NCBI GenBank assembly: GCA_963706575.1
Contig: CAVPNL010000005.1
Coordinates: 160,001 to 224,000 of the forward strand
Direction of reading: 5' to 3'
Source: an uncultured delta proteobacterium
GTDB lineage: Bacteria; Desulfobacterota; Desulfobacteria; Desulfobacterales; JAHEIW01
Length of the DNA stretch: 64,000 nt
Shown: piece by piece, positions 33,684-59,561 of the stretch
Position numbering within the stretch: position 1 is the stretch's first letter
Layout of the letters: the number at the start of each line of letters is the position of its first letter
The notes under the pieces: model-generated
Told to the model about the DNA's origin: nothing
Database searches by the model: none
What the model saw: only the letters and a program-made list of their open reading frames with translations
Position numbers and translations under genes: made by a program

Positions 33684-34589
33684 TAGCCTTTCCCTCTGGT
33701 TCGGGTTTTTCCGGGCCCGGCGTTTTTTTCGATATATTCGATGATCATGCCGGCAACATCTTTGCCGGTGGTTTTCTCGATGCCCTCCAATCCGGGCGAA
33801 GAGTTAACTTCCATGACGACCGGCCCGTGGTTGGATCTGAGCATGTCGACACCGGCCACCCTTAGCCCCATGATTTTGGCCGCCCGGACCGCTGTGGAAC
33901 GCTCTTCAGGGGTGATGCGCACTTTGCTGGCACGGCCGCCACGGTGGAGGTTGGACCGGAATTCTCCTTCGAGGCCCCTTGCGCATCATGGCGGCAACAA
34001 CCTTATTGCCGATGACCAGGCAACGAATGTCGGTGCCGCTGGATTCCTGGATGAATTCCTGCACCAGAATATTGGCTTTTAGACTCCGAAATGCCTGAAT
34101 AACACTCTGGGCGGCCTTTTGGGTCTCGGCCAGCACAACACCGACGCCCTGGGTGCCCTCGATCATCTTGACCACCAGCGGTGAGCCGCCCACAAGATCG
34201 ATGAGATCGTCGGTAAACACCGTCGAATGCGCGAAACCGGTGACCGGCAGGCCGATGCCTTTGCGGGCCAGCAATTGCAGGCTGCGCAACTTGTCCCGCG
34301 ATCGGCTGATGGCAACCGATTCGTTGAGGCAAAATACGTCCATCATTTCAAATTGCCGCACCACCGAAGTGCCGTAAAAGGTAATCGAAGCGCCGATACG
34401 CGGGATAATGGCATCGAAACCTTCTAATTTCTCGCCTTTGTAATGAATGGCCGGGTGATGCGAGGTAATGTTCATGTAGCAGCGCAACGGGTTAATGACG
34501 TGGACTTCATGGTCGCGCTTTCGGGCGGCTTCAATGAGGCTTTGGGTAGAGTAAAGCTCCCGTTTGCGGGAAAGTATGCCAATTTTCAT
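33683..34589 (-). CDS. rimK: RimK alpha-L-glutamate ligase; frameshift near 33975
   Basis: [39 protein letters not shown]; next frame [23 protein letters not shown]. Confidence 0.93.
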
Positions 34590-35268: not shown

Positions 35269-36501
35269 TCACGTTGCCGGGCGGGGTCGGTTTTCAAGCA
35301 TTTCCACGAAGGCTTCGATGCGGGTTCGCAGTTGGCCTTCGGCAAAATTGCGGGTGTCCATACAATCCACTTCAAGATTCAGCACCGGCACATTGATTTC
35401 CTTGAGTCCGCTGCTGATCAGCCCCCTGGCGCCCGTGCCCTGGCGGCAGCCCCAGTGGCAGGGATTGATGGCGCCATCCAGTTTATAGTTCCGGGCCAAT
35501 TTTTGGAGGTGCTGAACTCGGTTTTGCATGTTGACGTTTAACGGTTTTGCGATAGCGCGGCGCGCCATCCCGGTAAAAGGGTCATCCGGGTCAATGGAAT
35601 CCCAATAGATGTCGTTCAATTCATCGCAAACAATGTTGGCCTGATATTCTTTTTCAAGCAGGTCGACCAGGGGATTTTTAAACTGAATCCGGTTTTGGAT
35701 CCATAACAGCCGGATCTTTTCATCGGGCACCCCCTGGATTCCATTATCGATCCTGGCGCTGAATTCGTCTTTGTACGCCTGGGCAATCTCTATGGCGGAA
35801 TCCGTACCCAGAAATAACAATATGACGAGGCCGAAATTAATGAGCAGACGGCCGTCTGTCGGTGAGGGCACTTTTTGGGCGAGTCGATACATGTCTTGCA
35901 TGATTTCCCGGGCTCGATTTGTTTTATCGACAGCCTGGTGTAATTTGTTTTCATCGAGCGGTTCGCCCGTATGCTGGGAAATAAAGTCAACCATATCCTT
36001 TATTTGGTCCGCCAGATACTGTACGCTTTGCTCGGATTGTTCCTGGGGTACGTTTAAAACGAATAGGTCTTTTTTAAACATGTGCGCCAGGTTTTCCAGT
36101 ACCGCAACACCTCCGGAGCAGGGACAGGTGCTGGCGATGAGAAAATCCGGCTCGGGCATGATTCCTTTTCTGGCGGCCCCGATGACCGAACGGTGGAAAC
36201 CGCAGGTATCTCCGACAAAGCCGGCCTGTTCGGCCTCTTCCAGAAAAGTATCTGCCATGCCGGTTGAAGCCAGCACAGCACCCACAAATTCGACAAAACA
36301 GGAAGTGATGCCCATGGCGTTAAGCAAATCAAATGGGGCAGCGATACCGCACCAGGCAACCTGATCCTTACCGGAGTATAAGCGACTGCCGAGTCTGGCA
36401 ATCTCCAACGCATATTTTTTCCTGGGATTGGGTAGATTCGGATCTTGCAAAATCTTGGCCTCAATTCCGGATGCCAGGTCTTGAAAGTATTCGTACATCA
36501 T
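35269..36501 (-). CDS. 2-hydroxyacyl-CoA dehydratase subunit (HgdA/BcrB-like)
   Basis: DTCGFHR, TCPCSG, HWGCRQG, LEVDCMD..GQLRTRIEAFVEML. Confidence 0.88.
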   Translation of the reverse strand: MMYEYFQDLASGIEAKILQDPNLPNPRKKYALEIARLGSRLYSGKDQVAWCGIAAPFDLLNAMGITSCFVEFVGAVLASTGMADTFLEEAEQAGFVGDTCGFHRSVIGAARKGIMPEPDFLIASTCPCSGGVAVLENLAHMFKKDLFVLNVPQEQSEQSVQYLADQIKDMVDFISQHTGEPLDENKLHQAVDKTNRAREIMQDMYRLAQKVPSPTDGRLLINFGLVILLFLGTDSAIEIAQAYKDEFSARIDNGIQGVPDEKIRLLWIQNRIQFKNPLVDLLEKEYQANIVCDELNDIYWDSIDPDDPFTGMARRAIAKPLNVNMQNRVQHLQKLARNYKLDGAINPCHWGCRQGTGARGLISSGLKEINVPVLNLEVDCMDTRNFAEGQLRTRIEAFVEMLENRPRPAT

Positions 36502-36527: not shown

Positions 36528-37589
36528 TTAATCAAGCATTTCGATAAACGCTTCGATTCGAGTTCGTTGCTGTTCGATGGATCGCAGGCTGCAGTCTCCT
36601 TCGAGCAGCAATAACGGAATGCCGGCTTGGCGCAACGTCTCGCGTACTGCCGGCAGGCGATCCAGGTAGGGGTCGCAGAATTTGATGGTTTGGCCAATAA
36701 CGCCTCTGGCACCGGAAGCCTGAGCTCGAGTCAGGATGTCTTCGGCCATCTTCAGCGGTTGGCGCGGGTCGAATGTCCGGGCACAGGGCGGCCGGGTTAA
36801 CAGGCTGCGGGAAATCTGGAGAACCAGATTTTTGTTCTCATTAATATCCATGGGAGTGAATAATCTTGAGCCTGTGCAAAGATCATCTTCGATAATGCGG
36901 GCACCGCAGGATTCGAACAGCCTCAGTGCTTCAGGGTCTGCCAGGACATTGCCGAATAGAAAAACAGGGATTCCGTCACTCTCAGGATCCTCTGATTTCG
37001 GTTCCGCCAGCGCCTGTTTTAGGCTTCGTGCGCTTTTTGCGAAGGGCGTCGTCATCGCTTCATTATAAAGCGTTTGCATTCTGGTGCTGCTCCCTGCCAG
37101 TGTACCTTGGCGTACGCGCTCCCGCAATCTGGCAAAAAGGGGGGGTAGCTGGTTGTATCGCTGGATGCTTGTTTCTATATCGCTGTTGGTGATGTTGCGC
37201 CCGCGCCACTCTGAAAGCGCTTCCATCAGACGGGCAAGCTCTTTGGCAAAAAAAGTAACCGCTGGCTCATCGGAGATAACCGGCAGGTCCAGCAAGATGA
37301 TGTTATCATCAGGCCGCACCTGCCGCCAGGCATCACATACCCTGCGCATCGCATCGCAGCTGTTTATAAAGACGACACCCGCAAGACCCGGAAGATCCTT
37401 GCTGATGGCACGATCCAGAATGCGCTTGACATGCGGGCAGAGATTGTCGTGCAGCAGCTGCCCGGCCTGATCCGGGCACGCGCTCATCGGCAGAATGCGA
37501 TAGGGCGTATAGCCGGCTGCATCGATTAAGACCAGTGGCGCATAAGCACAGGCATAACCCATTTTTTCAGTTTTTTTAGGCATATCCAT
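36528..37589 (-). CDS. 2-hydroxyacyl-CoA dehydratase subunit (HgdB/BcrC-like)
   Basis: NLCPHVK, NSCDAMRR, DDLCTGSR, KFCDPY, RTRIEAFIEML. Confidence 0.88.
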   Translation of the reverse strand: MDMPKKTEKMGYACAYAPLVLIDAAGYTPYRILPMSACPDQAGQLLHDNLCPHVKRILDRAISKDLPGLAGVVFINSCDAMRRVCDAWRQVRPDDNIILLDLPVISDEPAVTFFAKELARLMEALSEWRGRNITNSDIETSIQRYNQLPPLFARLRERVRQGTLAGSSTRMQTLYNEAMTTPFAKSARSLKQALAEPKSEDPESDGIPVFLFGNVLADPEALRLFESCGARIIEDDLCTGSRLFTPMDINENKNLVLQISRSLLTRPPCARTFDPRQPLKMAEDILTRAQASGARGVIGQTIKFCDPYLDRLPAVRETLRQAGIPLLLLEGDCSLRSIEQQRTRIEAFIEMLD

Positions 37590-37878: not shown

Positions 37879-38328
37879 TTACCTATTTTCATCGTTCGCA
37901 TTGGCGAGTATATGTCGCAATAAATTTTTGGTTTGCGAGATACCCTCCTGCGGGATGCCGGCAAAGACCTGGGTAATCACCCGGTCTACCACGTTTAGCA
38001 CCGGATCACGAACCTGGCGGCCAATTTTTGTTAAATGAATTCTCAGCACCCGGCGGTCAGTCAGGTCTGTCGTGCGCGCAACCAATTCATCGCGTTCCAT
38101 ACGATCCAGCAGGCCCGTCATGGTTGACGGCTCCAGTCCGGCTTTTTTGCTAAGCTCGATCACTTTTAATCCATCCTCCTGCCACAGGCTCATCAGCACG
38201 CATAAATACGCCGGTTTTACCTGTTCAACCCCTGAGGATGCGAATTCTTTCTTCAGGGCGGCCGTCACCAACAGGCTGACGCGTGATATCAGATAATATG
38301 GGCATTCTTTAAGTGAACTCAGCATCAT
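37879..38328 (-). CDS. MarR family transcriptional regulator
   Basis: STMTGLLDRMERDELVAR..DRRVLRIHLT..G. Confidence 0.93.
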   Translation of the reverse strand: MMLSSLKECPYYLISRVSLLVTAALKKEFASSGVEQVKPAYLCVLMSLWQEDGLKVIELSKKAGLEPSTMTGLLDRMERDELVARTTDLTDRRVLRIHLTKIGRQVRDPVLNVVDRVITQVFAGIPQEGISQTKNLLRHILANANDENR

Positions 38329-38348
38329 TTTTGTCCGCCTTTTTACCA

Positions 38349-38375
38349 CGTATACGGATTATACGTATACGAAAT
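38349..38375. promoter_or_regulatory. Candidate MarR operator
   Basis: Palindromic CGTATACG twice (38349-56, 38364-71) just upstream of marR; TTGACA on the minus strand at 38385-90. Confidence 0.5.
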
Positions 38376-38711
38376 ATTGTGCTGTGTCAACTGTCCTTTT
38401 TTGTAATTTTAGCGTTCATCTCAATTAATATATTTTAACCGCCTTCACCTAAATTTAACTATTGCATAAATTTCGCTATGAAATAAACATATGCTGTCGA
38501 TCTTTAATGGAGGCGCTTGCCGAAAGCTAAAAACGAATTGTTTGAAATCGGTTAATCATGCTAAAAAGGGTGGGTCGTCTGACGTAATCAAAAGGGCCAT
38601 CCATTTATTTGGGATTTCGGGTTATTTGCCGTGGACCCATCGGCCTGCAAACAAATATTATCAGACATAGGGAGCAACTTACTCAGAAAGAAAGTAACCA
38701 AGGAGGGAGCA

Positions 38712-40064
38712 ATGGACCGGGATGATGTTGTCAAAAAGATCAAAGATGCGATGATTAAAGGTGAAATCCCTCCTTGGAAGGCTGATGACGAGGCGGCAAA
38801 AATGGGTATTACGGTGCCTGAGAATATTGTTGTGGGGACCATGGCCCGGCGTGCCTTTGTCGAAGAGAAAAGCGGTCAAAAATTTTGCCACATTGTCCTC
38901 CCTGAAAAACCGTATCATACGGGCTACCGGTGTCCAAAAGATGGCACGCTCTGGACTTTGGCGGCGGATGATACTTACGTGCGATGCGGCATGTGTGCAA
39001 CACCACTGGAAGTGCTGCCGGAAAACGAGCGTCACCAACCACTGGTCAACAATTACATCGGCGGGGTGGAAGATTATTATAGCTATGCGGGGGAGGTCAC
39101 CGTCAGCGGGGAAGTCAAAAAAACCTTTCAAAATATTCTCTGTTGGGGGCCGGGCGTCGGGCATCTGGGCATCAGTGTGGGATGCTTTCGACTCAACCAA
39201 TTCGGTCCCATTGAGGTGAAAGTGTCCGATTGGGGGGTTGCCGCCAGAAATTTAGCGTTTGTGTTTGATACCGAGGGCGAGCGTGAAAAAGCCCAATCGC
39301 TGATCAAAGAGAATCTTTCCGATGTCATCGCCCAGATGACGCGCTCGCATCTTTCGGAATGGAAGGGAGAGGTATTTGATGTTAGTTTTTTATATAAACA
39401 ACATCATGCAGATCGCATTTTGCATTGTTGTTTTTACACCCGGTTTTCCGATCACCGCGGCCATGGTCAGACTTCACATAGCGTGGGGTTGGCGAAAAAT
39501 CTAATCGATGATTTATTCGCCCAAAGCAATATCAAATGTCGGCTGTCTGTCGTCGGTATGGGAAGAGACGGTGATCTCAAGCCATCTCCGCGAAATAGGC
39601 GCGGACGTTACGTATCCGCACAACAGATTATTCCAATTAAAGACTTCGAAAAACTTATCGAGCGTCCGATCGACGATTTTCTTTCCTATATCGAGCTTGA
39701 TCGACAAGGCGTGTTGGAAGAAATCGGATGGCCGGCCTACACCGGTATGGGAGGGGAAATTATCCCCGCCTTTTATCGAACCATGAAAAACAACCCCAGA
39801 CCCTATCTGGTTTCATGTTATCAAAAGGTTTATGCTTATTGCCGTGGGACGGATTTGATCTTTGGTGTCGAATTGCCCAACGTTGAGGTGGGTATTACCT
39901 CGAGTCCGGAGGGCATTATATCGCCAATGGCCAGAGAGGCCCTAAAAATTGCCGGTATTCACAGTGCCAAGGAATTTGCGGCTGCCGCCGCGGCGATAAC
40001 GCTTGGGGGTGAATTTAATTTTGCGACCCTTCATATTCAGGAACGAATGTACACCGGCAAATAA
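38712..40064 (+). CDS. Divergent HMG-CoA reductase-fold protein with Zn-ribbon insertion; function unknown
   Basis: Collinear by eye with archaeal class I HMGR: ARRAFVE, NNYIG, AGEVTVSG, GC, DLKP..RGRYV, LPNVEVG, AREAL..AKEFA..LGGEF; RBS AGGAGG before ATG 38712. Confidence 0.7.
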   Translation: MDRDDVVKKIKDAMIKGEIPPWKADDEAAKMGITVPENIVVGTMARRAFVEEKSGQKFCHIVLPEKPYHTGYRCPKDGTLWTLAADDTYVRCGMCATPLEVLPENERHQPLVNNYIGGVEDYYSYAGEVTVSGEVKKTFQNILCWGPGVGHLGISVGCFRLNQFGPIEVKVSDWGVAARNLAFVFDTEGEREKAQSLIKENLSDVIAQMTRSHLSEWKGEVFDVSFLYKQHHADRILHCCFYTRFSDHRGHGQTSHSVGLAKNLIDDLFAQSNIKCRLSVVGMGRDGDLKPSPRNRRGRYVSAQQIIPIKDFEKLIERPIDDFLSYIELDRQGVLEEIGWPAYTGMGGEIIPAFYRTMKNNPRPYLVSCYQKVYAYCRGTDLIFGVELPNVEVGITSSPEGIISPMAREALKIAGIHSAKEFAAAAAAITLGGEFNFATLHIQERMYTGK

Positions 40065-40772
40065 ATGGATGTATTACCCAAAAAGATTTCCTATCCTGCC
40101 GGGGATACAAGCGTTCCCGGCATTTTATACTTGCCTGATGATCGAGCTGCATGTGCTGCGGTGATTATTTTTCACGGGAGTGATGGCTTCAAATCCAATC
40201 ATGAGATGATCGCTCGGAAGCTGGCGAAAGAAGGATTTGCCGCGTTGGCGTTGACCTGGTTCGGTGGTGCGTCGGCGCGATCGCTGTGGAGCGCTGTTCG
40301 CGCTGACGATATCTTGCAGGCGGTTGCTTTCTTAGAACAACAACCGGCGGTGGATGCGGACAGACTGGGTTTGATCGGATTTAGCCGGGGCGGCGGTTTA
40401 GCCTTGATTATGGCGGCGCTGATCCCACAAACCAAAGCAGTCGTTAATTATTTTGGGCTGACCGCCTGGAAAGCCGGTTTGGAAGAATTTGGTCATTTGC
40501 CGCTGAACGAATCCGAACCGCTGGATTTTATCCAGAAGCTCAGTTGCCCGGTTTTATCTTTTCACGGGGAAAAAGATACGGTGGTTCCTGTTAATAACGC
40601 CATCGACTTGGATACCGCGTGTAAAAAATATGGTGTCAATCACCGGTATATACTTTATCCGGGTGTCAATCATTCGTTCATCTGGCCGGGCGATAAATAT
40701 GACCGAAAGGCCCACCTGGATTCATGGGATAAAACGCTTCGATTTTTAAAAACTAACCTGAATTCTTTTTAG
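40065..40772 (+). CDS. Dienelactone hydrolase-family alpha/beta hydrolase (Ser nucleophile)
   Basis: FHGSDG, GFSRGG, HGEKDTVV, YPGVNHSF. Confidence 0.88.
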   Translation: MDVLPKKISYPAGDTSVPGILYLPDDRAACAAVIIFHGSDGFKSNHEMIARKLAKEGFAALALTWFGGASARSLWSAVRADDILQAVAFLEQQPAVDADRLGLIGFSRGGGLALIMAALIPQTKAVVNYFGLTAWKAGLEEFGHLPLNESEPLDFIQKLSCPVLSFHGEKDTVVPVNNAIDLDTACKKYGVNHRYILYPGVNHSFIWPGDKYDRKAHLDSWDKTLRFLKTNLNSF

Positions 40773-41024
40773 AGATCTAACATGGTTTTACCGATTGGGT
40801 TTGATAGGAACATGCTTTGCAGGGTGCAGGCTTTGATCTATTGATTAACATGTGATACGGATCTTAATTTATAAACCCACGCTGAAACCCATTAATGAAT
40901 AATTGAACTCAGTCAGTATACGGACAAAACTTATCTGATCCGATTTTCCTGTACGCCATCTATCCATCTATAACTTGGACCGTTTCAATATTACACACAA
41001 TTCAAAACTCATAGGAGCATAACA

Positions 41025-41882
41025 ATGGTTACCACAAAGCCGGTTGACACCCAGGAACCTACGATTACCCGTAAAGAAATTCTTTTTCTGCAGGATGAAA
41101 ATTTTAACAGCAAAAATGTATGCGTGGTTACCGGTGCCGGTACCGGGATTGGGCGGGCGACAGCCGTTGCCACAGCTGCCAATAATTTAATGACGGTGGG
41201 GCTGGATATCAACGCCGAAGAGGGGCATAAAACCTGTAAAATAGTTGATGAAATCGGGGGCAAGATGGTCTTCATCAAAACTGATCTGACCAAAGATGAT
41301 GACCTTGAAAATGCCATCCAGCAAGCGGCCAAGCTGGGCACCATCAAATACCTGGCCAACATTGCCGGGGTGCAACACATTGATTCGGTGGATAATTTTC
41401 CCATGGAAAAATACGATTTGATGCAACGCCTGATGCTCAGAGCCCCATTTTATCTTTCCAAACTGGCCATTCCCCATATGAGAAGCAGCAGCGACGGGAT
41501 CGGCGTTATCGGCAATATGGCGTCGGTCCATGCCCATATCTGCACCAAGAATAAGCCGGTTTACAATATTACGAAATTCGGCTTGAAAGCATTGAGCCAG
41601 TCCATTTCAGCGGAAGGAGAGGGTAATATCCGTTCTTTTACGTTGAGCACGGGCTTTGTCAAAACGCCGCTGGCGTTGAATCAGATTGCCGCCCAGGCCG
41701 AGCAGCGCGGCATTACACCCGAAGAAGTCGTCACGGATGTGATGATGGGCAAATCACGTATCAAGGAGATGATGTCGCCGATCGAAGTCGGCAATCTGTT
41801 TGTTTTCGGGTTTTCAAGATTTGCCAGATATCTTATCGGCGGGGATATGCTGTTTGATGGGGGCATGGTTTTGACCTATTAA
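41025..41882 (+). CDS. SDR oxidoreductase, 3-hydroxybutyrate dehydrogenase-like
   Basis: TGAGTGIG, AGVQHI..FPMEK, ASVHA..NKPVYNITK, GFVKTPL. Confidence 0.8.
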   Translation: MVTTKPVDTQEPTITRKEILFLQDENFNSKNVCVVTGAGTGIGRATAVATAANNLMTVGLDINAEEGHKTCKIVDEIGGKMVFIKTDLTKDDDLENAIQQAAKLGTIKYLANIAGVQHIDSVDNFPMEKYDLMQRLMLRAPFYLSKLAIPHMRSSSDGIGVIGNMASVHAHICTKNKPVYNITKFGLKALSQSISAEGEGNIRSFTLSTGFVKTPLALNQIAAQAEQRGITPEEVVTDVMMGKSRIKEMMSPIEVGNLFVFGFSRFARYLIGGDMLFDGGMVLTY

Positions 41883-42231
41883 TCCATCCAGATTTGTCGC
41901 GTTTAGATGATTGTTAATCTTCACCAGCGGCTCCGATTGCATTCTTAGAATATATCATAGCTGAATATTATTTAAGAATAAAACTGAATTTAGAAGGTAA
42001 TGTCCAATCAATATTTAGTCTTGACAATACGTGAGCGGATTGAGATTAGTAAGGATGCCAAAATCATCCGTTTGAAAGCATTTTGTTATCATACATGATG
42101 ACAGATAAAAGTCTCGTCTTGCGACATAATAAGTGTTGGTTAAACTTAGACACAAGGAAGGAGGTGAGAAGAGGCGTCGCGAATAGGGTCGGAGGATTAA
42201 AGGGATAAACCTTACACATACGGAGGAAAAA

Positions 42232-43357
42232 ATGAAAAAAATAGCATTTTTCCTTTTTATCGCAAGTCTTGCCGTGGTTTTTGCACTCGGCTCCACAGCT
42301 CTGGCGGCCGAAAAAGTCAAATGGCGCATGGGCAGCACCTGGACACCCGCCATCAATCTCTACCATGGCGACCACGCCATGATCCAGTACGTGAAAGAAA
42401 TGACCAATGGCGATTTTGATATCAAATGGTTTCCGTCCGGATCCCTGATGGGGGCTTTTGAGTACTTCGATGCCTGCAGTAAAGGCGTTGTGGAGGCTGT
42501 CGGGGATTGGCCCAGTTACTGGGTGAGCAAGGATCCGGCCTTTGATTTCCTCGGTTCCATGCCGTACGGTTTTACCAACATGGATTACATGACCTGGTAT
42601 TATCAGTTCGGCGGTGAGGCCCTCTACAATGAGGCTTACGGAAAATTCGGCATGCGTTATCTCAATCTGGGATCAACGACCTCTGAGTCCGGATTCCGGA
42701 CGACCGAAAAGACCGGGCCCATCAGATCCATCGCGGACTACAAAGGCAAAAAGGTTAGAACCCCGGCGCGGGCCACCATCTGGATTCTGGAGCAACTTGG
42801 CGGCACACCGGTTAAGATGCCCGGCGGTGAGATCTATCTGGCGGTGGAAAGAGGCACCCTGGATGGGGCCGAGTTCAGCGCACCCGGTATTGACTGGGAG
42901 ATGGGCTTTGCCGAGATCACCAAGTACTGGAGCGTGCCCTGCTGGTTTCAGCCGGCATCTCAGGTCGGTGTCATGATTAATGAAAAAGCCTGGCAGAAGC
43001 TCTCCCCGCAATACCAGGCCATCCTGAGAACTGCCGCCAGGGCGGCGGCCATGGAAAGTCTGACTTTTTACGAGGCCGACTCCGGCAGAGCCATTGAGAA
43101 ATTTATCGCTAAAGGGCACCGAGATCGTCAAACTGGATGATGCCAGCCTGGAAAAGCTGGATGAGCTGTCGGGCGAATACATCATCATGTCGGCCAAGGA
43201 GCGCGGCGGGCTTTTTGCCAAGATCCTGAAATCCCAGATGTTATACCTCAATGAATATAAGGACTGGCGCGATATGACCGGCAAATTCGGTTTTGGGTTC
43301 CATCCCTCTTATGTGGATAAGGTGTTGGCAGAGCTGGATAAAATGGGTGTTCAATAG
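42232..43357 (+). CDS. dctP: TRAP transporter solute-binding DctP; frameshift near 43113
   Basis: Signal peptide, KWRMGSTW, GKKVR, GEIYLAVERGTLDGAEF; C-terminus in ORF 43094..43357. Confidence 0.9.
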
Positions 43358-43364
43358 GCTTAAG

Positions 43365-43403
43365 AGAGACCTTTGGAGACAATTCTTCAAAGGTCTCTTT
43401 TTT
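43365..43403 (+). terminator. Hairpin/intrinsic terminator after dctP
   Basis: AGAGACCTTTGGAG-ACAATT-CTTCAAAGGTCTCT-TTTTT. Confidence 0.7.
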
Positions 43404-43470
43404 CAATGTCGAGTGGGTACCGCATTCGGGCTTGACGTAAAAATTTACAGCTAAATTCAAGGTATTTCAG

Positions 43471-43979
43471 ATGCAGCTGAAAACGATTTTAAAAGGTTTC
43501 GACGGGATCAGCGAATGGTCCGGCAGGATTTTTGTCTGGTTGATCATTCCGCTGACCGTTGTGGTGGTTTTTGAGGTAATTTCCCGCAGAGTCTTTAACG
43601 CGCCGCACATCTGGGCGACTGAGGTGACCAACTACCTTTACGGCCCCCACTTTATGCTGGTGGCGGCCTATACGCTTTTGTATAAATCGCACGTCAGCAT
43701 CGACATCATTTACGGTCGCTATTCGCCGCGCACCCGGGGCATTCTGGACATTTTTACCTATCTGGTTTTTTTCTTTCCATTTTGCATTATCGTTTTCTAT
43801 CAGGGCATTGTGTTTGCCCAGACATCCTGGTCCATCGGTGAGACCAGCGAGTCGGCCGCCCTGAGAATTGTTCCCTTAATTAAAACCGTCATTCCGTTAC
43901 GTTTGGATTGCTGTTGATCCAGGGATTGGCCAATTTTATACGCAGTATTATGCTCGTCGTCAGGGGAAAAGAAATATGA
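43471..43979 (+). CDS. dctQ: TRAP small permease DctQ; frameshift near 43896
   Basis: FEVISRRVFNAP, HVSIDII; restored tail TFGLLLIQGLANF..GKEI* overlaps the dctM ATG. Confidence 0.88.
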
Positions 43980-45302
43980 GTCCGGAATTTATCACCATCG
44001 GTATGTTTGTGGGGCTTTTAATCGGCCTTTTTTTAGGCCACCCGCTGGCCTTCGTCCTTGGCGGTCTGGCGGTGATATTCGGTTATTTTGGTGACTGGGG
44101 CACGCGCCAGTTTTTACATGTTTTTAAACCGGACCTGGGGCATCATGGACAATTATATCCTGGTATGCATCCCGCTGTTTATCTTTATGGCGCAGATGCT
44201 GGATCAATCCGGTGTGGCCGAAGATCTCTTTGATACCATGCGCTACCTGTTTGGCCCCATCCGCGGGGGAATTGCCGTTGCGGTGGTGGTGGTTTCGACA
44301 TTATTCGGTGCTTGTACGGGGATCATCGGCGCGTCGGTCGTCACCATGGGTCTTTTGAGCATGCCGGTGATGCTCAAATATAATTACAATAAACGACTGG
44401 CATCCGGAGCGGTTTGCGCCGGGGGCACGCTGGGGATTCTGATTCCCCCCAGTATTATGCTGGTGGTTATGGCGGACCAGGCCGCCACATCGGTGGGCAA
44501 GCTTTTTGCCGGTGCGATTATTCCCGGACTGATTCTGTCGGGTCTGTATATCGGCTACATTTTGATTCGTTGTGGGTTCAAACCCCATGAGGGGCCGCCC
44601 CTGAGCAAAGAAGAGCGACAGGCGATCACCAAGTTTCAGCTGCTCAAAATGGTGCTGAAATCGATGGTGCCGCCCATGATTCTGATTCTGGGTGTCCTGG
44701 GCTCCATCTTTGCCGGCATTGCCACCCCGACTGAAGCCGCCGGAGTGGGCGCTTTGCTGGCCTTTATCATGACCGTGGCTTACGGCAAGTTCACCTTTGA
44801 AAACCTTAAAACAGCCGTCATCAATACCGCCAAAACCACCTCCATGGTGATCCTCATTTTGGTGGGGGCGGCCTGTTTTGCCAGTATTTTTCTGGGTTCC
44901 GGCGGCGGGGAGGTCGTCCAGGATTTTATTCTGGGAATCGGTTTCGGCAAATGGGGCACGTTTATCGTCATGATGATTATCCTCTTTTTTCTGGGGATGT
45001 TCATCGACTGGATCGGCATCATCATGATCACCTTTCCGGTTTTTTTGCCGATCGCGCAAGAACTGGGATTTGACAAGGTCTGGTTTGTGGTCACCATGGC
45101 CGTGATGCTGCAGGACTCTTTTTTAACGCCACCCTTTGGTTATGCCTTGTTTTACCTGAAAGGCGTCGCACCACCGGAAGTGAAAACATCAGATATTTAC
45201 TGGGGCGCCTTTCCCTTCTGGCGGCTGATGGAAGTCGGCCTGATCATTGTTGTGGTGTGGCCATCCACCATCACCTGGCTGGCGAATATATTGGTGAAGT
45301 AG
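43976..45302 (+). CDS. dctM: TRAP large permease DctM; frameshift near 44100
   Basis: IPLFIFMA, GGTLGILIPPS, ATPTEAA, SFLTPPFG. Confidence 0.92.
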
Positions 45303-45571: not shown

Positions 45572-47217
45572 GTGCTAAAGCCTGGCAAAAGCTATAAGGA
45601 GGTCTACAATTCTTTCTGCTGGGAGATCCCGCAGCACTATAACATCGGGGTGGATATTTGTGACAAATGGGCCCGGCAATCCGATCGTCTGGCCCTGATT
45701 TATGAAAATGAAAGCGGCCAGTGTCGAAAAATACACCTTTGCTGATCTAAAGGGGTTATCCAACCGGATGGCGAACGGCCTTAAGGCCAACGGCATCGAG
45801 CAGGGTGACCGCTTTGGGATCCTGCTGCCACAGTGTCCCGAAACGGCCATCAGTCATATTGCCGCTTACAAGCTCGGCGCCATCGCCATTCCGCTTTTCA
45901 CACTTTTCGGCACCGATGCCCTCGAGTATCGTCTGTCCAACAGCGAAGCCAAAGGCATCGTCACCGATAGCGCCAATCTGCCGAAGATCATGCAAATTCG
46001 GCAGAACCTGCCGGATCTGGAAGTGGTGATCGTCACCCGCGGTGAAAAAGGGGATAACGTTCTGGATTTCGGCAAGCTGATCGAAAAAGGATCTGCCGAT
46101 TTTAGATCCGGTTAAAACCAAAGCTGACGATCCGGCCCTGATTATTTACACATCGGGGACCACCGGCCCGCCTAAAGGCGCGCTGCATGCCCACCGGGTG
46201 TTACTGGGGCATTTGCCGGGTGTGGAGTTTCCGCACAATTTTTTCCCTCAAGAAAATGATTTCTTCTGGACACCGGCGGATTGGGCCTGGATCGGCGGCC
46301 TGATCGATGTGCTTTTTCCCAGCTGGCACCATGGTATTCCGGTTCTGGCGCACCGCGCCAAGAAATTTGACCCGGAAGAAGCCTTCCACCTGATTGCCAG
46401 ATACAAAATCCGCAATGCGTTTATGCCGCCGACCGCTTTGAAACTGATGCGTCAGGTTAAAGATCCCCGCAGCCGCCACAAATTTGAAATGCGGAGTATC
46501 GGCAGCGGCGGTGAAACATTGGGTGAAGAGCTTCTGGATTGGGGCAAAGATGTGTTTAATTTGAACATCAATGAATTCTACGGGCAGACCGAGGCGAATC
46601 TGGTGGTAGGCAATTGTGCAACGGTCATGACCAATTTGCCCGGTTCCATGGGCCGAGCCGTTCCCGGGCACACCGTCGCGGTGGTAGATGATTCGGGTCA
46701 ACCCCTGCCGACGGGAACCGCAGGTGAGGTTGCCATCAGGCGTCCCGACCCGGTCATGTTCTTGGAATACTGGAAGAATCCGAAGGCCACCGCTGATAAA
46801 TATGTGGGCGATTGGTGCCTGACGGGCGATCTGGCCAAACAGGATGATGAAGGGTATTTTTGGTTCGTCGGCCGCAAGGATGATGTCATTACCAGTGCCG
46901 GCTATCGCATCGGGCCGGCCGAAATTGAAGACTGCATCATGAAACATCCGGCCGTGGGTATGGTGGCGGTTGTCGGCAGCCCGGATGAAGTGCGTACCGA
47001 AATCGTAAAAGCCTTTATTGTCCTCAAGGCTGATGTTGCTGCGGGTGACGAGGTGGCTGCGGATATAAAGCAGTTTGTCAAAGTCAGACTGGCAGCCCAT
47101 GAGTACCCGCGGGAAATTGAATTCGTCGACGAACTGCCAATGACCGCCACCGGGAAAATCATGCGCAAGGATTTAAAAGCGCTGGAGCGTGAACGCAAGA
47201 TGAAGAAAAAGTTATGA
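45572..47217 (+). CDS. Acyl-CoA synthetase (short/medium-chain, AMP-forming); frameshifts near 45722 and 46104
   Basis: YNIGVDICD, YTSGTTGPPKG (restored), ADWAWIGG, YGQTE, TGD, GRKDDVI, TATGKI. Confidence 0.9.
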
Positions 47218-47338: not shown

Positions 47339-47833
47339 CTAATCTTCCTCCGGTAGGCGTATGACTAAAACCGGCGTCTTACAGCGCCTGAGCACCCGTC
47401 GCGACACGCTTCCCATCAATGTATCTGCCAGAACGCCGTGGCCGTGGGCACCCATAACGACCATATCATAGCTGTTGTTTTCAACTTCCAGCAAAATTTC
47501 GTCTACCGGGTTACCGATTTTGACCATAATATTGTCGGTGATAAACGGACATGACGGAAGATCCGCCTGCACATCATCACAGAACTTCGTGAGCCTGGAT
47601 TTGATGGTATCAAGAACCTCTTTTTCATTACGCCCCCGCAGCTCCTCCCACTTATCTTCTCCGATGATGTTAATCACCAGGCTGTCGGTTGTGGGAGAGA
47701 TATCTTCTAAAACGTGAAAGATGGTGACGCCGGCGTCGTATCGATTGGCCAGGCTGGCCGCATAACCAAACGCATAACGGGCGTTTTCTGAAAGATCTGT
47801 CGTGTAGAGAATTTTGTTTATTGCAGGTATCAT
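47339..47833 (-). CDS. Universal stress protein
   Basis: KILYTTDLSENA..VVMGAHGHG..MGSVSRRVLRRCKTPVL. Confidence 0.95.
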   Translation of the reverse strand: MIPAINKILYTTDLSENARYAFGYAASLANRYDAGVTIFHVLEDISPTTDSLVINIIGEDKWEELRGRNEKEVLDTIKSRLTKFCDDVQADLPSCPFITDNIMVKIGNPVDEILLEVENNSYDMVVMGAHGHGVLADTLMGSVSRRVLRRCKTPVLVIRLPEED

Positions 47834-48003
47834 TTTTTCCTCCGGGGCTATGTCTGCACCATCCGTTCGGCAGACCTGATGGGGGTTGCATTATCTTAGA
47901 GATTACCTGAATTTTGTACCTAAATAACCATTTGCAAAATTCAGGTATTAAGATAAAAGATAAACTGGAATATAATGATAACTTTAAACGGGTTCAAGTT
48001 AAA

Positions 48004-48306
48004 ATGTCTGAAACAACGGAACTGATATTAGGTATCGCTGCCCTCATAGCCGTCATTACCCTTACGAGAAGGTATCACGCCTGGCGAATTAAACGGGCTT
48101 ACATTTTCATCATCGATGATCTTAAAAAAAACGGTGCGTATAGTGCCCATTCTGCTGTGGACCTGCCTTATGCCAAAAGAAATCTGTTAAAAATGGGCCT
48201 GCGGCAGCACCATCCCCAGGCCCTTGACCATCTCATCATGGAAAATATTGTCGGCAAAACCGAAGACGAACGCTATTACCTCGTTCAGGAAAATGTCGGC
48301 CTATAA
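48004..48306 (+). CDS. Small hypothetical membrane-anchored protein
   Basis: N-terminal TM LILGIAALIAVITL followed by RR; terminator-like hairpin over the stop. Confidence 0.65.
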   Translation: MSETTELILGIAALIAVITLTRRYHAWRIKRAYIFIIDDLKKNGAYSAHSAVDLPYAKRNLLKMGLRQHHPQALDHLIMENIVGKTEDERYYLVQENVGL

Positions 48307-48317
48307 GCCGACATTTT
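48290..48317 (+). terminator. Intrinsic terminator-like hairpin
   Basis: AAAATGTCGGC-CTATAA-GCCGACATTTT. Confidence 0.55.
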
Positions 48318-48459
48318 GTTATTCGTTATTTGTTATTTGAAAAAATCCTGTATGAATTTTTTTACTCTTTTTAATTACCGCGGATGATTGGAGGTTAATT
48401 TCTCATTTTAAAATGATGAAAATATCCGCAGATAATCCAATAGCCAATAACGTAAAACG

Positions 48460-48483
48460 AAAACGGGCCTATTGGCCCGTTTT
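48460..48483 (-). terminator. Bidirectional terminator-like hairpin after HOT
   Basis: AAAACGGGCC-TATT-GGCCCGTTTT. Confidence 0.65.
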
Positions 48484-49761
48484 CTACCACAGGGTGAGTG
48501 AATCTAAAAACAGCTGCTTCAAATCCTCAGCGCTCGCCGGCCGCGGGGATAATTTGGTCACCCGGTGCTGAGGCAATGTTCCCTCCACCAGTTTATCAAC
48601 ATCATCCGGCCCATAACCCACGGCGCTGAGCCCGTTGGGCATTCCCACCTTACGCATGATCTCTAAAATGGCGTCGGCCAGGAGTGGACCGGCGTCTTCA
48701 GGTGAGGCACCGGTAATATCTTTGCCCATCAGTCCGGCGGCGTTCAGATGCTGAGCAGGATTCGCCGAAGCCGTAAATCGAAAAACCGCCGGCGCGTTCA
48801 AGACGACTGCCATCCCGTGGGGAACCAGCGGGTGATCCGGCGGATACCCCTCGGGCACATAATCGCGCACCATTCCCGATACGGGATACGACATGCCGTG
48901 AGGCAGATGACATCCGGCGTTTCCAAAGCCGATGCCGGCATAGGTGGCTGCCAGCATCACTTCTCCGCGGGCCTCATCATCGGAAGGATCTTCAATGACC
49001 CGAATCAGGTACTGGGAGATCATTTCAATGGCCCGGGAAGCCCAGATGTCGGAGATGGGATTGGAGCCTTGATATGCGGGGCGCATCCCGGGATGATCGG
49101 GAGCCGGCCGCTGGTTGTAAGGCAGCGCGGTCATGGCTTCCAGCGCGTGGGTCAGTTGATCCAACCCGGTGCAGGCGGCAATCATTTTGGGAAGCGCCCG
49201 GGTATTATTGGGATCGACAATGCCTTTTATCGGCCGCAGCGCGCGGTGCGCAATTCCGGTTTTGGCGTGCATTTCCAGATAATCAAAAATGGCCACGCCG
49301 GTCGTTTCACTACCGGTACCGGCCGTTGTCGGGACCGCTACCAGCGGTTTTAAGGGCCCGGGGACGGGTTCGCCTTTGCCGACCGGCGGATTCACGTAGG
49401 CCATAAAATCTGCCGGATAGGTCGCATACAGGTTGGCGGCCTTGGCGGTGTCCATGCTGGACCCCCCGCCGACCGCGACAAAGCCGTCGAAATTGCCGTC
49501 TTCGGCAAACTGAATGGCCTCTTTAAAAGAAATATCCGTTGGTTCCACACTGGCCTGGTCATATAACACGGCATCGATGCCATGTTTGTTTAAAGCGTCA
49601 AGCGTCACGGCAACCGGCTCCTCATCTGCCAGATGGGGATCAGTGACGACCATCACCCGTCTGGCACCTTGTTCTTCCATGTCCCATCCGACCTCGCGCG
49701 TAACGCCTGGCCCGTACTTGATACTGGATGTATCCATCGAGAATGCTGTTTCTAGTGTCAT
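48484..49761 (-). CDS. Hydroxyacid-oxoacid transhydrogenase (HOT/ADHFe1-like iron-containing ADH)
   Basis: SSIKYGPGVTREVG, GGGSSMDTAK, PTTAGTGSETTG, RPAYQGSNPISD, GNAGCHLPHGMSYPVSG, PHG. Confidence 0.9.
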   Translation of the reverse strand: MTLETAFSMDTSSIKYGPGVTREVGWDMEEQGARRVMVVTDPHLADEEPVAVTLDALNKHGIDAVLYDQASVEPTDISFKEAIQFAEDGNFDGFVAVGGGSSMDTAKAANLYATYPADFMAYVNPPVGKGEPVPGPLKPLVAVPTTAGTGSETTGVAIFDYLEMHAKTGIAHRALRPIKGIVDPNNTRALPKMIAACTGLDQLTHALEAMTALPYNQRPAPDHPGMRPAYQGSNPISDIWASRAIEMISQYLIRVIEDPSDDEARGEVMLAATYAGIGFGNAGCHLPHGMSYPVSGMVRDYVPEGYPPDHPLVPHGMAVVLNAPAVFRFTASANPAQHLNAAGLMGKDITGASPEDAGPLLADAILEIMRKVGMPNGLSAVGYGPDDVDKLVEGTLPQHRVTKLSPRPASAEDLKQLFLDSLTLW

Positions 49762-49797
49762 GATTCTTATCCTCCATTGTTCAAAATTATTTTTCAA

Positions 49798-49859
49798 ATC
49801 GCGTCTGGAGGCCGCTCCCACATCAAATGAATTCGGTGGGAGCGGCCTCCAGCCGCGAT
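49798..49859. repeat. REP-like inverted doublet (same family as 25008)
   Basis: ATCGCGTCTGGAGGCCGCTCCCAC..GTGGGAGCGGCCTCCAGCCGCGAT. Confidence 0.8.
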
Positions 49860-49884
49860 AAATTTCAACAACTGCGCAGGCAGG

Positions 49885-50526
49885 CTATTGAAGATCGATG
49901 AAACTCCTGGCGATCGTCACCGCTTCGGCGGCGTCTTCCCCGTAGGCGTCGGCTCCGATTCTTTCTGCAAAATCTGCATCTACCGGTGCGCCGCCGATCA
50001 TCACTTTCACCTTTTTACGGATACCCCTGTCTTGCAGCAGATTGATCACATTCTCCATCTCCGGCATGGTGGTGGTGAGCAGGGCCGATAAACCCAGGAC
50101 CTGTGGTTGAATCTCGTTGACTTTATCGATTAGCTTCTCAACCGTAACGTCGACACCCAGGTCGATAACCTCCAAGCCGGCGCCCTCCAACATCATGGCC
50201 ACCAGATTTTTTCCAATGTCGTGCAGGTCACCCTTGACCGTGCACAAAACGACCTTTCCCTTGCTTTGTTCTTCATCTTCTTTTAACAAGGGTTTGATAA
50301 TATCCAGCCCCTTTTTCATCGTCACGGCGGAGACCAGCATTTCCGGCACAAAAATTTCACTCTTGGCAAAGCGATCACCCACCACATCCATGGCGGCAAT
50401 TAAGGCCCGGTTGATGAGGTCATCCAGGTTGGCTTTTTCCTGAATTGCTTTTTGCACAAGGGCTTCGATCTCCTTATGCTTGCCGGCGATCACGGTATTT
50501 TTGATTTCTTCAAGCAATTTTTCCAT
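49885..50526 (-). CDS. Methyltransferase-cognate corrinoid protein
   Basis: FVPEML, GDLHDIGKNLV, LSALLTTTM, IGGAP. Confidence 0.95.
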   Translation of the reverse strand: MEKLLEEIKNTVIAGKHKEIEALVQKAIQEKANLDDLINRALIAAMDVVGDRFAKSEIFVPEMLVSAVTMKKGLDIIKPLLKEDEEQSKGKVVLCTVKGDLHDIGKNLVAMMLEGAGLEVIDLGVDVTVEKLIDKVNEIQPQVLGLSALLTTTMPEMENVINLLQDRGIRKKVKVMIGGAPVDADFAERIGADAYGEDAAEAVTIARSFIDLQ

Positions 50527-50657
50527 TTGATTTTTTCCTTGTTAATTTTTTACCGCAAAGCTGCAGAGGGCGCAGAGCCTTTAATTTTAAAAAAAACGCT
50601 GCGATCTCTGCGTCTCTAACGAATTCAGTGGGTGGGCGGTGAGAGATAACCAACCCG

Positions 50658-51668
50658 CTAATACCCCTCGTGGGCGGCTTCTACGATAGCTTTCAAGTTC
50701 TCCAATGGGGTCGACAGCGGAATTGCGCATTCCGGGCCGATGATGTTGATGCCGGCCTCAACGGCATAACGCACCTGCTGGTGAACATCTTCAGGAGTTC
50801 CCTGATAAAGCACCTGGGGGTTATTGACGTTTCCTACCAACGATACCTGTTGCCCGATTTTTTCCACTGCCATTTTGGCATCGACCTGCCATTCCATATG
50901 ATAGGCATCCACACCGGATTGGGCGAAATATTCCAAGCGGTCGGAGCAGTCGCCGCACACATGCAGGATCAACGGGCCTTCAATTTGGGCAGTAACTTCC
51001 TGATGGATCGGAAGCAAAAGTTCCTTGTAATGATAGGGACCCACCAGGTTCCCGGTGACATGGTCTGCCATAACGACGATATCGGCCCCCGCCTGGAATT
51101 GAGCCTGCGCAAAGGCAATGGTTACCGGCATCAACTGTCTTAGCAGTTTTGTCACTTTTTCGGTTTCTCCCATGCCGATTTGGAGCAGAAAATTCTGAGT
51201 GCCGGCCATGTGATAGGACAGCGTCCAGGGGCCCATCACTTTGCCGACTATGGCTACTTTTCCACCCACCTGGCGCCGCAGAATCGACAACGCTTCCAGG
51301 ACAACCTTCATGGATGGTTTTTCCAGAAGGTGATCCGGCACCACCACATCTGAAAAATCTTCATAAGGAAAATTTTTATTGTCCGGCATGCGGTCCCGAT
51401 TCCCCCAGTCCACCATGCATCCTAAAGCCGCGCCTTCCTGCTGCACACTGTATTCCGGCATGACGGTATCAAAGCCCAAAATCTCATGGCCGGCCAGGGC
51501 CAAATCGGCCATGGCATTGGCATCCAGATGCGCATCCGGAAATGAAACTCCGGCGGCATCCATGAGACCATGACAAACAATGGAGGTGGGATTTCCCACC
51601 GGTGGCCGTTCGCCTTTGCGACCGTTGAACATGGCCGACATCACCAGGTTGTAAGAAGATGATTTCAT
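50658..51668 (-). CDS. MtaA/CmuA family Zn methyltransferase (URO-D fold)
   Basis: PDAHLDANAMA, GPWTL, LHVCGD (HxC), GNVN, GPECAI. Confidence 0.9.
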   Translation of the reverse strand: MKSSSYNLVMSAMFNGRKGERPPVGNPTSIVCHGLMDAAGVSFPDAHLDANAMADLALAGHEILGFDTVMPEYSVQQEGAALGCMVDWGNRDRMPDNKNFPYEDFSDVVVPDHLLEKPSMKVVLEALSILRRQVGGKVAIVGKVMGPWTLSYHMAGTQNFLLQIGMGETEKVTKLLRQLMPVTIAFAQAQFQAGADIVVMADHVTGNLVGPYHYKELLLPIHQEVTAQIEGPLILHVCGDCSDRLEYFAQSGVDAYHMEWQVDAKMAVEKIGQQVSLVGNVNNPQVLYQGTPEDVHQQVRYAVEAGINIIGPECAIPLSTPLENLKAIVEAAHEGY

Positions 51669-51691
51669 GTTTAGAACCTCCAATTCAAAAA

Positions 51692-51832
51692 TCAGGTGTC
51701 AGGTGTCGGGTGTCAGGTTTCAGAAAACAAAGGTCAGACGACAGACGGCAGATAAAAAAAATTGAAGATGAAGCACCCGATCTGTCCCCTGTCATCTTTT
51801 TACTGACACCCGACACCTGACACCTGAAACCT
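51692..51832. repeat. Heptamer hairpin (CAGGTGT)n..(ACACCTG)n
   Basis: TCAGGTGTCAGGTGTCGGGTGTCAG..CTGACACCCGACACCTGACACCTGA. Confidence 0.8.
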
Positions 51833-51889
51833 TACATCACCGCCCCGATATGCCACGGCACGAACTCGTAATCGCCAAAGCCTAAATTT

Positions 51890-52765: not shown

Positions 52766-52841
52766 GTTTGTCCTCCCTTGTGCGTAGGTATTATAAATCA
52801 ATTGTAGAGATAGTTTGGTAGTGATTTAGCTTAAACATTAT

Positions 52842-53139
52842 AGGTTCAGGGTTCAGGGTTCAAAGGTTCCGGTTTGCAGATTATACAGATCACCAGAAGA
52901 TTGCTTTGAGCCCTATTTTTGACTTGTCATTTTCCGGCCTGAGTTGTCCTCCAGGGGCTCTGACTTGTCGTTTTCCGGCTTAATCCGGCAGGTCCATAAA
53001 GGCTGTAGGGCTGGCCTCTGTGCCAGCCATCAAAAGGCAGCCGCAGAGGGCTGCCCTACGCTCCGGTTTTTAGCTGATCTCTGACCTCTGTCTTCTGTTA
53101 TCTAACTTCTGAACCCTTGAACCCTGAACCTTTGAACCT
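52842..53139. repeat. Nested repeat: (GGTTCAG)n hairpin enclosing a 19-bp direct repeat and a GTAG REP doublet (53005..53059)
   Basis: AGGTTCAGGGTTCAGGGTTCAAAGGTTC..GAACCCTTGAACCCTGAACCTTTGAACCT; TGACTTGTCRTTTTCCGGC x2; GTAGGGCTGGCCTCTG..CAGAGGGCTGCCCTAC. Confidence 0.75.
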
Positions 53140-53144
53140 GACAC

Positions 53145-54525: not shown

Positions 54526-54645
54526 AATTCAATTCTCCCGGGATTTTTATCTCTGATCAGGCCGACAGGTGCCGAAAAGTATAGGAAATGGTTGAGAATC
54601 TTCACGTGTATATTAGCAAAATGGGCAAGGATCAATAAAAAATAT

Positions 54646-59467: not shown

Positions 59468-59561
59468 AATAGCCGGGCACAATTCTTTTTAAAATGTTAT
59501 TTATTTCAAGTCAGACTGTATTTTTAGAGCGGGTTCGTTTTCAGAATAATAGGAGGTGAAG

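Follow-up and report, generated by a model that had tools for sequence, protein, structure and literature searches.

The closest described systems are the HMG-CoA (3-hydroxy-3-methylglutaryl-coenzyme A) reductases (HMGRs; EC 1.1.1.34/88) of class I, represented here by the enzymes of Methanothermococcus thermolithotrophicus (6HR7/6HR8) and human (1DQ8), those of class II (Pseudomonas mevalonii, 1QAX, and others), and FcrA, an HMGR-derived fatty acyl-CoA reductase. In the FcrA report (PMC11948995), FcrA is described as keeping the catalytic Glu, Lys, Asp and His (E559, K691, D767 and H866 in human HMGR), using nicotinamide adenine dinucleotide phosphate (NADPH), having a long hydrophobic pocket and often carrying an N-terminal lipid-carrier domain; on that account it is a precedent for the recruitment of an HMGR homologue to another acyl-CoA in bacteria without a mevalonate pathway. 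Here we describe a gene, and its 450-residue protein, both called X, at 38712..40064 (stop codon included) on the + strand of a 64,000-nucleotide stretch of DNA (the window; positions 160,001 to 224,000 of contig CAVPNL010000005.1, assembly GCA_963706575.1) from an uncultured delta proteobacterium of the order Desulfobacterales. X is maintained by selection and belongs to a branch of the HMGR superfamily that had not been described before; none of the four catalytic residues of HMGR is kept in it.

X and class I HMGR have a three-part fold in common over X residues 119-445, and both conserve the N-domain RR helix, the MTR Arg, the D-x-K-P-x3-N-x-RG segment, the (I/V)E(I/V)G strand and the GE(L/F) helix. 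Unlike class I HMGR, X has Pro or Thr, Leu or Val, Asn-Pro and a chain-end Lys or Arg in place of the Glu, Lys, Asp and His, has both the DAMGxN and the GTxGGGT motif replaced, carries a zinc-ribbon insert of ~45 residues, and belongs to a host without the mevalonate pathway. With class II it shares the superfold, the alignment reaching the N-terminus (model residues 14-450), and the class II catalytic residues are likewise absent. Compared with FcrA as that paper presents it, X lacks the tetrad, has a zinc ribbon instead of a lipid-carrier domain, and stands among genes for short-chain rather than wax-ester metabolism. Because the defining catalytic and cofactor features of both HMGR and FcrA are missing, X should not be annotated as a reductase.

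Homology, fold and selection of X

Alone, X scored 23.9 bits against the Pfam HMG-CoA reductase model PF00368, under the cut-off of 27 and over residues 370-437 only, and a single-sequence phmmer search against PDB chains gave chance matches only (E > 1). Three relatives (P0122, P0170 and P0186) lie above the PF00368 cut-off, with 36-47 bits over nearly the full domain; P0122, among the relatives at 40% identity, reached 46.6 bits over residues 158-448. A profile of 23 family sequences matched the archaeal class I HMGR 6hr7 at E 1.1e-27 and the plant and human HMGRs at ~1e-14, with no class II match at E <= 1. When the X family was aligned with two genuine archaeal HMGRs by hhalign, 397 columns were covered at a probability of 99.6% (E 4e-24).

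The AlphaFold2 model of X, built from 57 sequences, had a mean predicted local distance difference test score (pLDDT) of 92.9 and a predicted template modelling score of 0.91. Foldseek placed 6hr8/6hr7 at the top (6hr8_B, E 6.8e-21, TM 0.63/0.72) with human HMGR next. In VIA-align the archaeal class I HMGR gave Z 32.3 (root-mean-square deviation 2.2 A over 315 residues), human HMGR ~30.8 and class II HMGRs 25-26; all of the top 48 entries were HMGRs, and the best non-HMGR chain had Z 11. Sequence and fold both make X a genuine homologue of HMGR, with a match far beyond chance, and the fold that the first-pass annotation had read from the motifs was borne out. X is closest to class I, because class I tops the structural scores, with class II lower, and gives the profile matches.

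Homologues numbered 350 at E <= 1e-3. Among the 120 matches listed, nearly all full-length ones were 450-455 residues long with 100% query coverage, and because of these lengths the ATG at 38712, rather than an alternative in-frame GTG at 38631 (477 residues), was taken as the start. A Shine-Dalgarno sequence, AGGAGG, lies at 38701..38706 on the + strand, 5 nucleotides before the ATG, so that the uninterrupted reading frame and strong ribosome-binding site claimed at the outset are both present. The ratio of nonsynonymous to synonymous substitution rates (dN/dS) was 0.063-0.104 (broadly 0.07-0.10) in eight of ten pairs, and the remaining two were saturated. X is under purifying selection and is not decaying; a lack of homologues under such selection, which the first-pass annotation had named as the sign of a decaying gene, was not found, given the 350 homologues, the dN/dS values and the invariant residues described below. 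One copy elsewhere (G097:C204:3572-4921) carries one in-frame TGA in an otherwise full-length match.

The family was present in 15 of the 301 genomes sampled from the host order (9 of 221 high-quality genomes; 8 of 155 genera), always in single copy. Sources that give it a name label it "hypothetical protein", NCBIfam holds no model of it, and the ESM Atlas has it in a cluster without a name (54 members, 33% with PF00368). The literature search, with subscription journals outside its coverage, found no description of the X family, FcrA being the sole related case. RNA-library contigs over 38350..41900 came from two runs of one study as exact pieces of 151, 151 and 230 nucleotides within X, and two runs of another study gave relatives 90-95% alike. 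These are a weak hint of transcription, since such libraries can contain DNA; the absence of cover over the downstream hydrolase gene carries no meaning.

Replacement of the reductase residues

Conservation was read from a MAFFT alignment of 120 sequences, comprising 114 close relatives (40-95% identity, the window included) and 6 distant ones (22-29%), and HMGR positions were mapped by a HMMER profile against 6hr7 and by hhalign against the two true archaeal HMGRs. All coordinates given within X are on the + strand. The HMGR motif ENxIG reads NNYIG in X, and TTEG reads WGPG, with P147 in the place of the catalytic Glu (Pro in 88, Thr in 25 and Ser in 1 of the 114). The catalytic Lys corresponds to position 289 (DKKP to DLKP; Leu in 106, Val in 8). 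It lies in the cis-loop segment G284-RDGDLKPSPRNRRG-R299 (39561..39608), in which D286, D288, R297, G298 and R299 are invariant. GQD is replaced by KN(N)P, within the stretch G345-MGGE349 ... KNNP362 (39744..39797), where an invariant E349 stands at an HMGR Asn; the two alignments differ here by one residue and place no Asp at the catalytic position, which falls on Asn361 (114/114) or Pro362 (120/120). The catalytic His maps by hhalign to position 450, the chain end, which is K450 in X and Arg in 69, Lys in 39 and another residue in 6 of the close relatives. In none of the 114 is any of the four residues kept.

Both NADPH motifs are replaced as well. The first, DAMGMN, has become DHRGHG (x-H/A/Y-R-G250-H251-G in the family; H248-R-G-H-G252 at 39453..39467), with G250 and H251 in 120/120. 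The Gly-rich second motif, GTxGGGT, has given way to N390-VEVGITSSPEG401 (39879..39914), of which N390, E392, G394 and E400 are invariant. With these changes NADPH binding would presumably be lost. Every motif substitution listed in the first-pass annotation, and the missing C-terminal His, reappeared in both the HMMER and the hhalign alignments.

Twenty-two positions are invariant in 120/120: G117, G148, G153, G157, R179, G250, H251, G284, D286, D288, R297, G298, R299, G345, M346, E349, P362, N390, E392, G394, E400 and N436. Several HMGR-conserved residues are kept, namely R179 (the MTR Arg), D288 and K290 of the cis-loop D-x-K-P, N295 and the RG pair; position 331 is basic (Arg in 102/114 close sequences, Lys in 6/6 distant ones), and an aromatic residue in the N-domain, at position 22, is Trp in 114/114. 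In HMGR, the counterparts of R179, D288, K290, R331 and W22 bind the acyl-CoA, its distal carboxylate included. The invariants particular to this family, H251, D286, E349 and E400, together with N390 and E392, appear to map around the thioester/nicotinamide site of HMGR.

The N-terminal part of X carries a zinc-ribbon-like insert, C74-P-K-D77 ... C92-G-M-C95 (38931..38996), just where a CPKD-x14-CGMC element had been pointed out. C74, C92 and C95 are each present in 114/114 close relatives and D77 in 112/114 (one Glu, one Cys), and the 6 distant sequences, of archaeal type, have gaps in place of the whole insert. In the model the insert region, ~45 residues after the N-terminal helices, forms beta strands at 68-117, and weak profile matches (E 0.4-1) were obtained to eS27 and to a subunit of RNA polymerase, both zinc-ribbon proteins. 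A zinc ribbon has two knuckles that supply four metal ligands; the pattern here is C-x2-D ... C-x2-C, in which Asp as a fourth metal ligand is unusual. On the simplest reading, the zinc bound by this Cys3-Asp ribbon would probably be structural. A His/Cys cluster that had also been described as gained fared less evenly. H251 is universal (120/120), and the remainder is lineage-specific or variable: H231, H232 and H441 occur in 109, 111 and 112 of the 114 close relatives and in 0/6 distant ones, and C239, C240, H248 and H256 in 91, 102, 77 and 77 of the close relatives.

Gene neighbourhoods of X

Neighbourhoods were compared at 43 genome loci, 80 metagenome loci and the window, with related loci counted separately and grouped by identity to X. 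Band A (at least 60% identity, 58 loci) is of Desulfobacterales type, with one locus labelled Thermoflexales; band B (48-60%, 19 loci) comprises Scalindua/Brocadiaceae, Pirellulaceae and two Thermoplasmatota; band C (35-48%, 44 loci) comprises Aminicenantes, KSB1 and metagenome-assembled genomes (MAGs) labelled "Eubacteriales"; and band D is made up of 3 loci of DPANN archaea carrying X', a distant paralogue of X (L041:5565-10238, L042:1269-5885 and L043:5775-9203).

In the window, the stop codon of X (TAA, 40062..40064) abuts the ATG at 40065 of a 235-residue Ser hydrolase of the dienelactone hydrolase (DLH) family (40065..40772, + strand; PF01738, E 1.6e-35), an arrangement that had been reported from the sequence and is correct. 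This protein has the alpha/beta-hydrolase make-up and nucleophile-acid-His triad of the DLH family. The triad (S107, D171, H203) and the elbow G-F-S107-R-G are unchanged in 9/9 orthologues. Among chains of solved structure, DLH- and MHETase-like hydrolases come nearest to it, and it also resembles the C-domains of acyl-CoA thioesterases (PF08840, E 5e-11; matches to ACOT2 and ACOT4). A complex prediction for X with the hydrolase had a score of 0.00, which is no answer and counts neither for nor against an interaction.

Across band A, X and the hydrolase are often translationally coupled: the hydrolase follows X directly on the same strand in 27 of the 43 loci with at least 750 nucleotides downstream, and at 16 of these 27 the stop codon runs straight into the start codon. 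The linkage that had been proposed is real in these loci, but it is absent in the closest relatives of X, and other partners occur elsewhere. The window block from the hydrolase to a transporter (40065-45302) looks like a recent insertion or deletion, because L001, L045 and L046, 95% identical in X, have no hydrolase directly downstream. At L001 an acyl-CoA ligase lies 230 nucleotides downstream of X instead. Among the 58 band A loci, a MaoC (R)-hydratase stands directly upstream in 15, a short-chain dehydrogenase like that of the window occurs in 14, a 668-residue FadX-like family I CoA-transferase (434 bits) follows the hydrolase in 8, and a divergent MarR regulator and an HGD-D pair occur in 6 each.

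Band B has different partners. A 3-hydroxyacyl-CoA dehydrogenase immediately precedes X in 12 of the 15 loci with a full-length X and at least 1100 nucleotides upstream, and in 10 of those 15 an archaeal-type acetyl-CoA acetyltransferase (thiolase) stands one gene further upstream; the thiolase, dehydrogenase and X genes lie on one strand and overlap or nearly so. The dehydrogenase beside X in planctomycetes has a conserved N-terminal extension of ~90 residues with CxxC...CxxC (L018:6858-7160; also L019-L022, L039, L080-L082 and L086). By eye this looks like the DUF35 scaffold of the archaeal thiolase/HMG-CoA synthase (HMGS) complex; Pfam found no DUF35 in the extension, and its AlphaFold model (pLDDT 53.6) was too poor to search. 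One Scalindua MAG has a broken X remnant (L036:7735-8645; residues 220-420, in small reading frames) with the upstream thiolase and dehydrogenase missing, which looks like a decayed copy of the planctomycete operon. In band C, the next gene upstream, ~67 nucleotides away, encodes in 12 of 44 loci a 580-residue protein that weakly matches an esterase family (PF00756, E 1.6e-4), with a Crp-type regulator downstream in 9 and a 132-residue gene without an assigned family nearby in 16.

X' directly follows SucC-like and SucD-like genes at all three DPANN loci, and the alpha subunit scored 375.8 bits against a SucD equivalog cut-off of 336. At the two Aenigmarchaeota loci a true HMGR comes directly after X' (E 1e-101 and 1e-105), within a full mevalonate cluster that continues with GHMP kinases and the decarboxylase, and one of these clusters also contains HMGS, an IDI2-like gene and a polyprenyl synthase. 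Thiolase models had no match in the two Aenigmarchaeota genomes, which are 0.9-Mb MAGs and possibly incomplete. A phylum survey gave three further weak X' matches at ~110 bits, probably ordinary HMGRs. Correlation of X' with thiolase absence across the phylum was dropped, as only 2 of 151 genomes carry X'.

Around X in the window, a MarR-family regulator (37879..38349, - strand; PF01047, E 2.2e-14) is divergent and 362 nucleotides upstream. Beyond it an HGD-D pair, like 2-hydroxyacyl-CoA dehydratase/benzoyl-CoA reductase, occupies 35269..36501 and 36528..37589 (- strand; PF06050, E 1.2e-73 and 3.1e-57); such a pair is also found upstream of X at L001 and L003. Downstream of the hydrolase, on the + strand, come a short-chain dehydrogenase (41025..41882) most like 3-hydroxybutyrate dehydrogenase (TIGR01963, 181 bits, below the cut-off of 307) and a TRAP-type carboxylate transporter, DctP, DctQ and DctM (42232..45302; PF03480, E 3.2e-47 for 42232..43140, DctQ and DctM being named from the translations of their reading frames). 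An AMP-binding acyl-CoA ligase split in two open reading frames follows on the same strand (45702..46115 and 46198..47217; PF00501, PF13193), with stop codons within the whole span. DctP (42232-43357), DctM (43976-45302) and the ligase (45702-47217) each consist of two overlapping or adjacent reading frames, and a RimK-like frame (33906-34589) encodes only 227 residues, its match to the Pfam RimK ATP-grasp model ending at profile position 107 of 188. Either assembly errors introduced frameshifts here or these are genuine pseudogenes; both X and the hydrolase gene are unbroken.

The block at 47339-62654 contains an Fe-alcohol dehydrogenase, a B12-binding protein with a URO-D-like methyltransferase, a 3-hydroxyisobutyrate-dehydrogenase-like gene, two flavin adenine dinucleotide-linked oxidases, a LarA-like racemase, LutABC-like genes and a further acyl-CoA ligase. 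The genes at 47-63 kb are additional hydroxy-acid catabolic genes, and we counted them for the function proposed below.

The window was said to hold no mevalonate pathway genes near X, and none was found in its 64 kb. The host genome (5.67 Mb, 91.8% complete) likewise gave no PF00368 match other than X and no match to the models of HMGS and diphosphomevalonate decarboxylase, and DXR of the methylerythritol phosphate pathway is present (479 bits). A lone GHMP kinase (G000:C4:386252-387079; L125:9235-10173) scored 171.1 bits against a mevalonate-kinase cut-off of 163, with a RecJ-like nuclease, a HAD phosphatase and an NTP-transferase-like gene as neighbours. It was rejected as a mark of a host mevalonate pathway because these neighbours are unrelated and HMGS and the decarboxylase are absent.

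Candidate activities and their meaning

The neighbours of X point to short 3-oxo/3-hydroxyacyl-CoA metabolism. Together with the kept acyl-CoA residues, this leads us to favour, tentatively and at somewhat less than an even chance, a non-redox enzyme whose chemistry would take place at the thioester bond of an acyl-CoA with a short 3-oxo- or 3-hydroxy-(di)carboxylic acyl group. X would no longer reduce its substrate, an HMG-like CoA thioester of a short acid, and would act on it without redox chemistry. The proposal that the HMGR scaffold has been repurposed stands in part: the fold, the lost hydride-transfer residues, the selection and the new invariants speak for it, whereas the His/Cys cluster invoked for it is mostly lineage-specific and the hydrolase is not obligatory.

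That X is a CoA-transferase specifically is a narrower claim, drawn from context, and we think it rather unlikely. CoA transfer is nevertheless favoured among specific reactions, because one activity would give each of three contexts a role. The acyl-CoA would form from succinyl-CoA or acetyl-CoA and a 3-oxo or 3-hydroxy acid, and a Glu or Asp would serve as acyl/CoA carrier. In Desulfobacterota, the hydrolase would free the acid and X would activate it. In planctomycetes, activation by X, oxidation by the dehydrogenase and thiolysis by the thiolase would form a three-step operon, and in DPANN archaea the CoA donor would be renewed by succinyl-CoA synthetase next to X', upstream of HMGS and HMGR. 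The 3-oxoadipate route runs through an enol-lactone/dienelactone hydrolase, then 3-oxoadipate CoA-transferase, then thiolase, and succinyl-CoA:3-oxoacid or acetate:succinate transferase cycles run with succinyl-CoA synthetase. In family I and III CoA-transferases a catalytic Glu or Asp forms an enzyme-CoA thioester. Family I enzymes with their partners have the kinds of neighbour seen around X (DLH hydrolase, thiolase, 3-hydroxyacyl-CoA dehydrogenase and a succinyl-CoA-synthetase-like pair). The analogy is one of function and not of membership: the folds of families I and III are unrelated to that of X, which has neither and shows no sequence similarity to family I.

Several observations weigh against a non-redox thioester enzyme of this kind. 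The hydrolase is absent at 16 band A loci, including the three closest relatives named above. A family I CoA-transferase (8 loci) or acyl-CoA ligases (the window, L001) already stand beside X, so that a second activator looks redundant. Band C, with its Crp, 132-residue and beta-lactamase-fold genes, and the Thermoplasmatota contexts say nothing on CoA esters. The apparent clustering of the new invariants at the old active site comes from the alignment and the HMGR structure, and no catalytic nucleophile can be singled out. In the archaea, the two genomes that gave no thiolase match are MAGs of 0.9 Mb, and a thiolase as well as an archaeal HMGS is present in the third DPANN genome; X' is 22-25% identical to X, has no ribbon and occurs in 2 of 151 genomes of its phylum. 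Because X' is so distant, ribbon-less and rare, the transfer of its context to X is weak.

Readings that made X a polymer enzyme, such as a polyhydroxyalkanoate-synthase-like one, were prompted by the thiolase, MaoC and 3-hydroxybutyrate-dehydrogenase-like neighbours and were dropped because no Cys or Ser that could serve as nucleophile is invariant in X.

Part of the same evidence would also suit a C-C lyase or synthase for 3-hydroxy-3-substituted acyl-CoAs, akin to the HMG-, citramalyl-, malyl- or citryl-CoA lyases, with a divalent metal on the new Asp, Glu and His residues. The set H251, D286, D288, E349, E392 and E400 resembles the Mg/Mn sites of such lyases, and the residues of an HMG-type pocket are kept in X. 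MaoC, CoA-transferase and X together would mirror the itaconate route (CoA-transferase, hydratase, citramalyl-CoA lyase), just as the succinyl-CoA-synthetase-like pair by X' would mirror thiokinase-lyase pairs such as those of citryl-CoA synthetase with its lyase and malate thiokinase with malyl-CoA lyase. The score of the DPANN alpha subunit over the SucD cut-off, however, favours a true succinyl-CoA synthetase; thiolase, 3-hydroxyacyl-CoA dehydrogenase and a lyase make no obvious pathway, and the metal site is a predicted one. We consider a lyase improbable.

The loss of all four canonical catalytic residues could also mean that X is a dead pseudoenzyme, an acyl-CoA-binding, regulatory or scaffolding subunit that would pass substrates on to the enzymes beside it (hydrolase, thiolase/dehydrogenase) or organise them. 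Its partners vary among lineages, the surface zinc ribbon could serve as a docking module, and the abutting hydrolase start in 16 loci would fit a subunit. Against this, about a dozen invariant polar residues that map to the old active site (120/120, in bacteria and archaea, at 22-95% identity) exceed the usual need of a scaffold, and X often has no fixed partner at all, so we give a pseudoenzyme a low probability.

An acyl-CoA thioesterase, acting for instance on 3-hydroxybutyryl-CoA from the neighbouring thiolase and dehydrogenase, would explain the planctomycete trio as a source of free 3-hydroxy acid and could use the acid/base residues predicted at the thioester site. Such an activity would be futile directly after succinyl-CoA synthetase and before HMGR, and the DLH-family neighbour is itself thioesterase-like; we hold this reading to be very unlikely. 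That X is still an oxidoreductase, working on acyl-CoA or hydroxy acids with other catalytic residues or another cofactor, seems to us a slim prospect too: all characterised members of the fold are four-electron reductases (HMGR classes I and II, and FcrA as PMC11948995 describes it) and the small domain, NADPH-binding in HMGR, is structurally kept, but the Gly-rich loop now has an invariant Glu, the Met of the first NADPH motif is now an invariant His, and the tetrad that FcrA keeps, by the same paper, is gone.

Taken at its fullest, the non-redox thioester reading makes the HMGR fold the basis of a new enzyme class, likeliest a CoA-transferase, in which the side chains of H251, E349, E400 and D286 would stand where HMGR has the nicotinamide and would attack, or else activate, the thioester that HMGR would reduce. 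In some DPANN archaea the paralogue, coupled to succinyl-CoA synthetase in the mevalonate gene cluster, would make acetoacetyl-CoA or HMG-CoA out of a scavenged acid, in place of the missing thiolase step. As a whole this combination is speculative, and we judge it unlikely that all of its parts hold.

The family spans sulfate reducers, anammox planctomycetes, Aminicenantes, Thermoplasmatota and DPANN archaea. A demonstrated non-redox activity would be the first for the HMGR fold outside reductases, and several hundred "hypothetical proteins" would gain a name and a function open to testing. It would bear on how anaerobes activate or process the short 3-oxo and 3-hydroxy acids freed by hydrolases, and on how some genome-reduced archaea feed a mevalonate pathway apparently without a thiolase.

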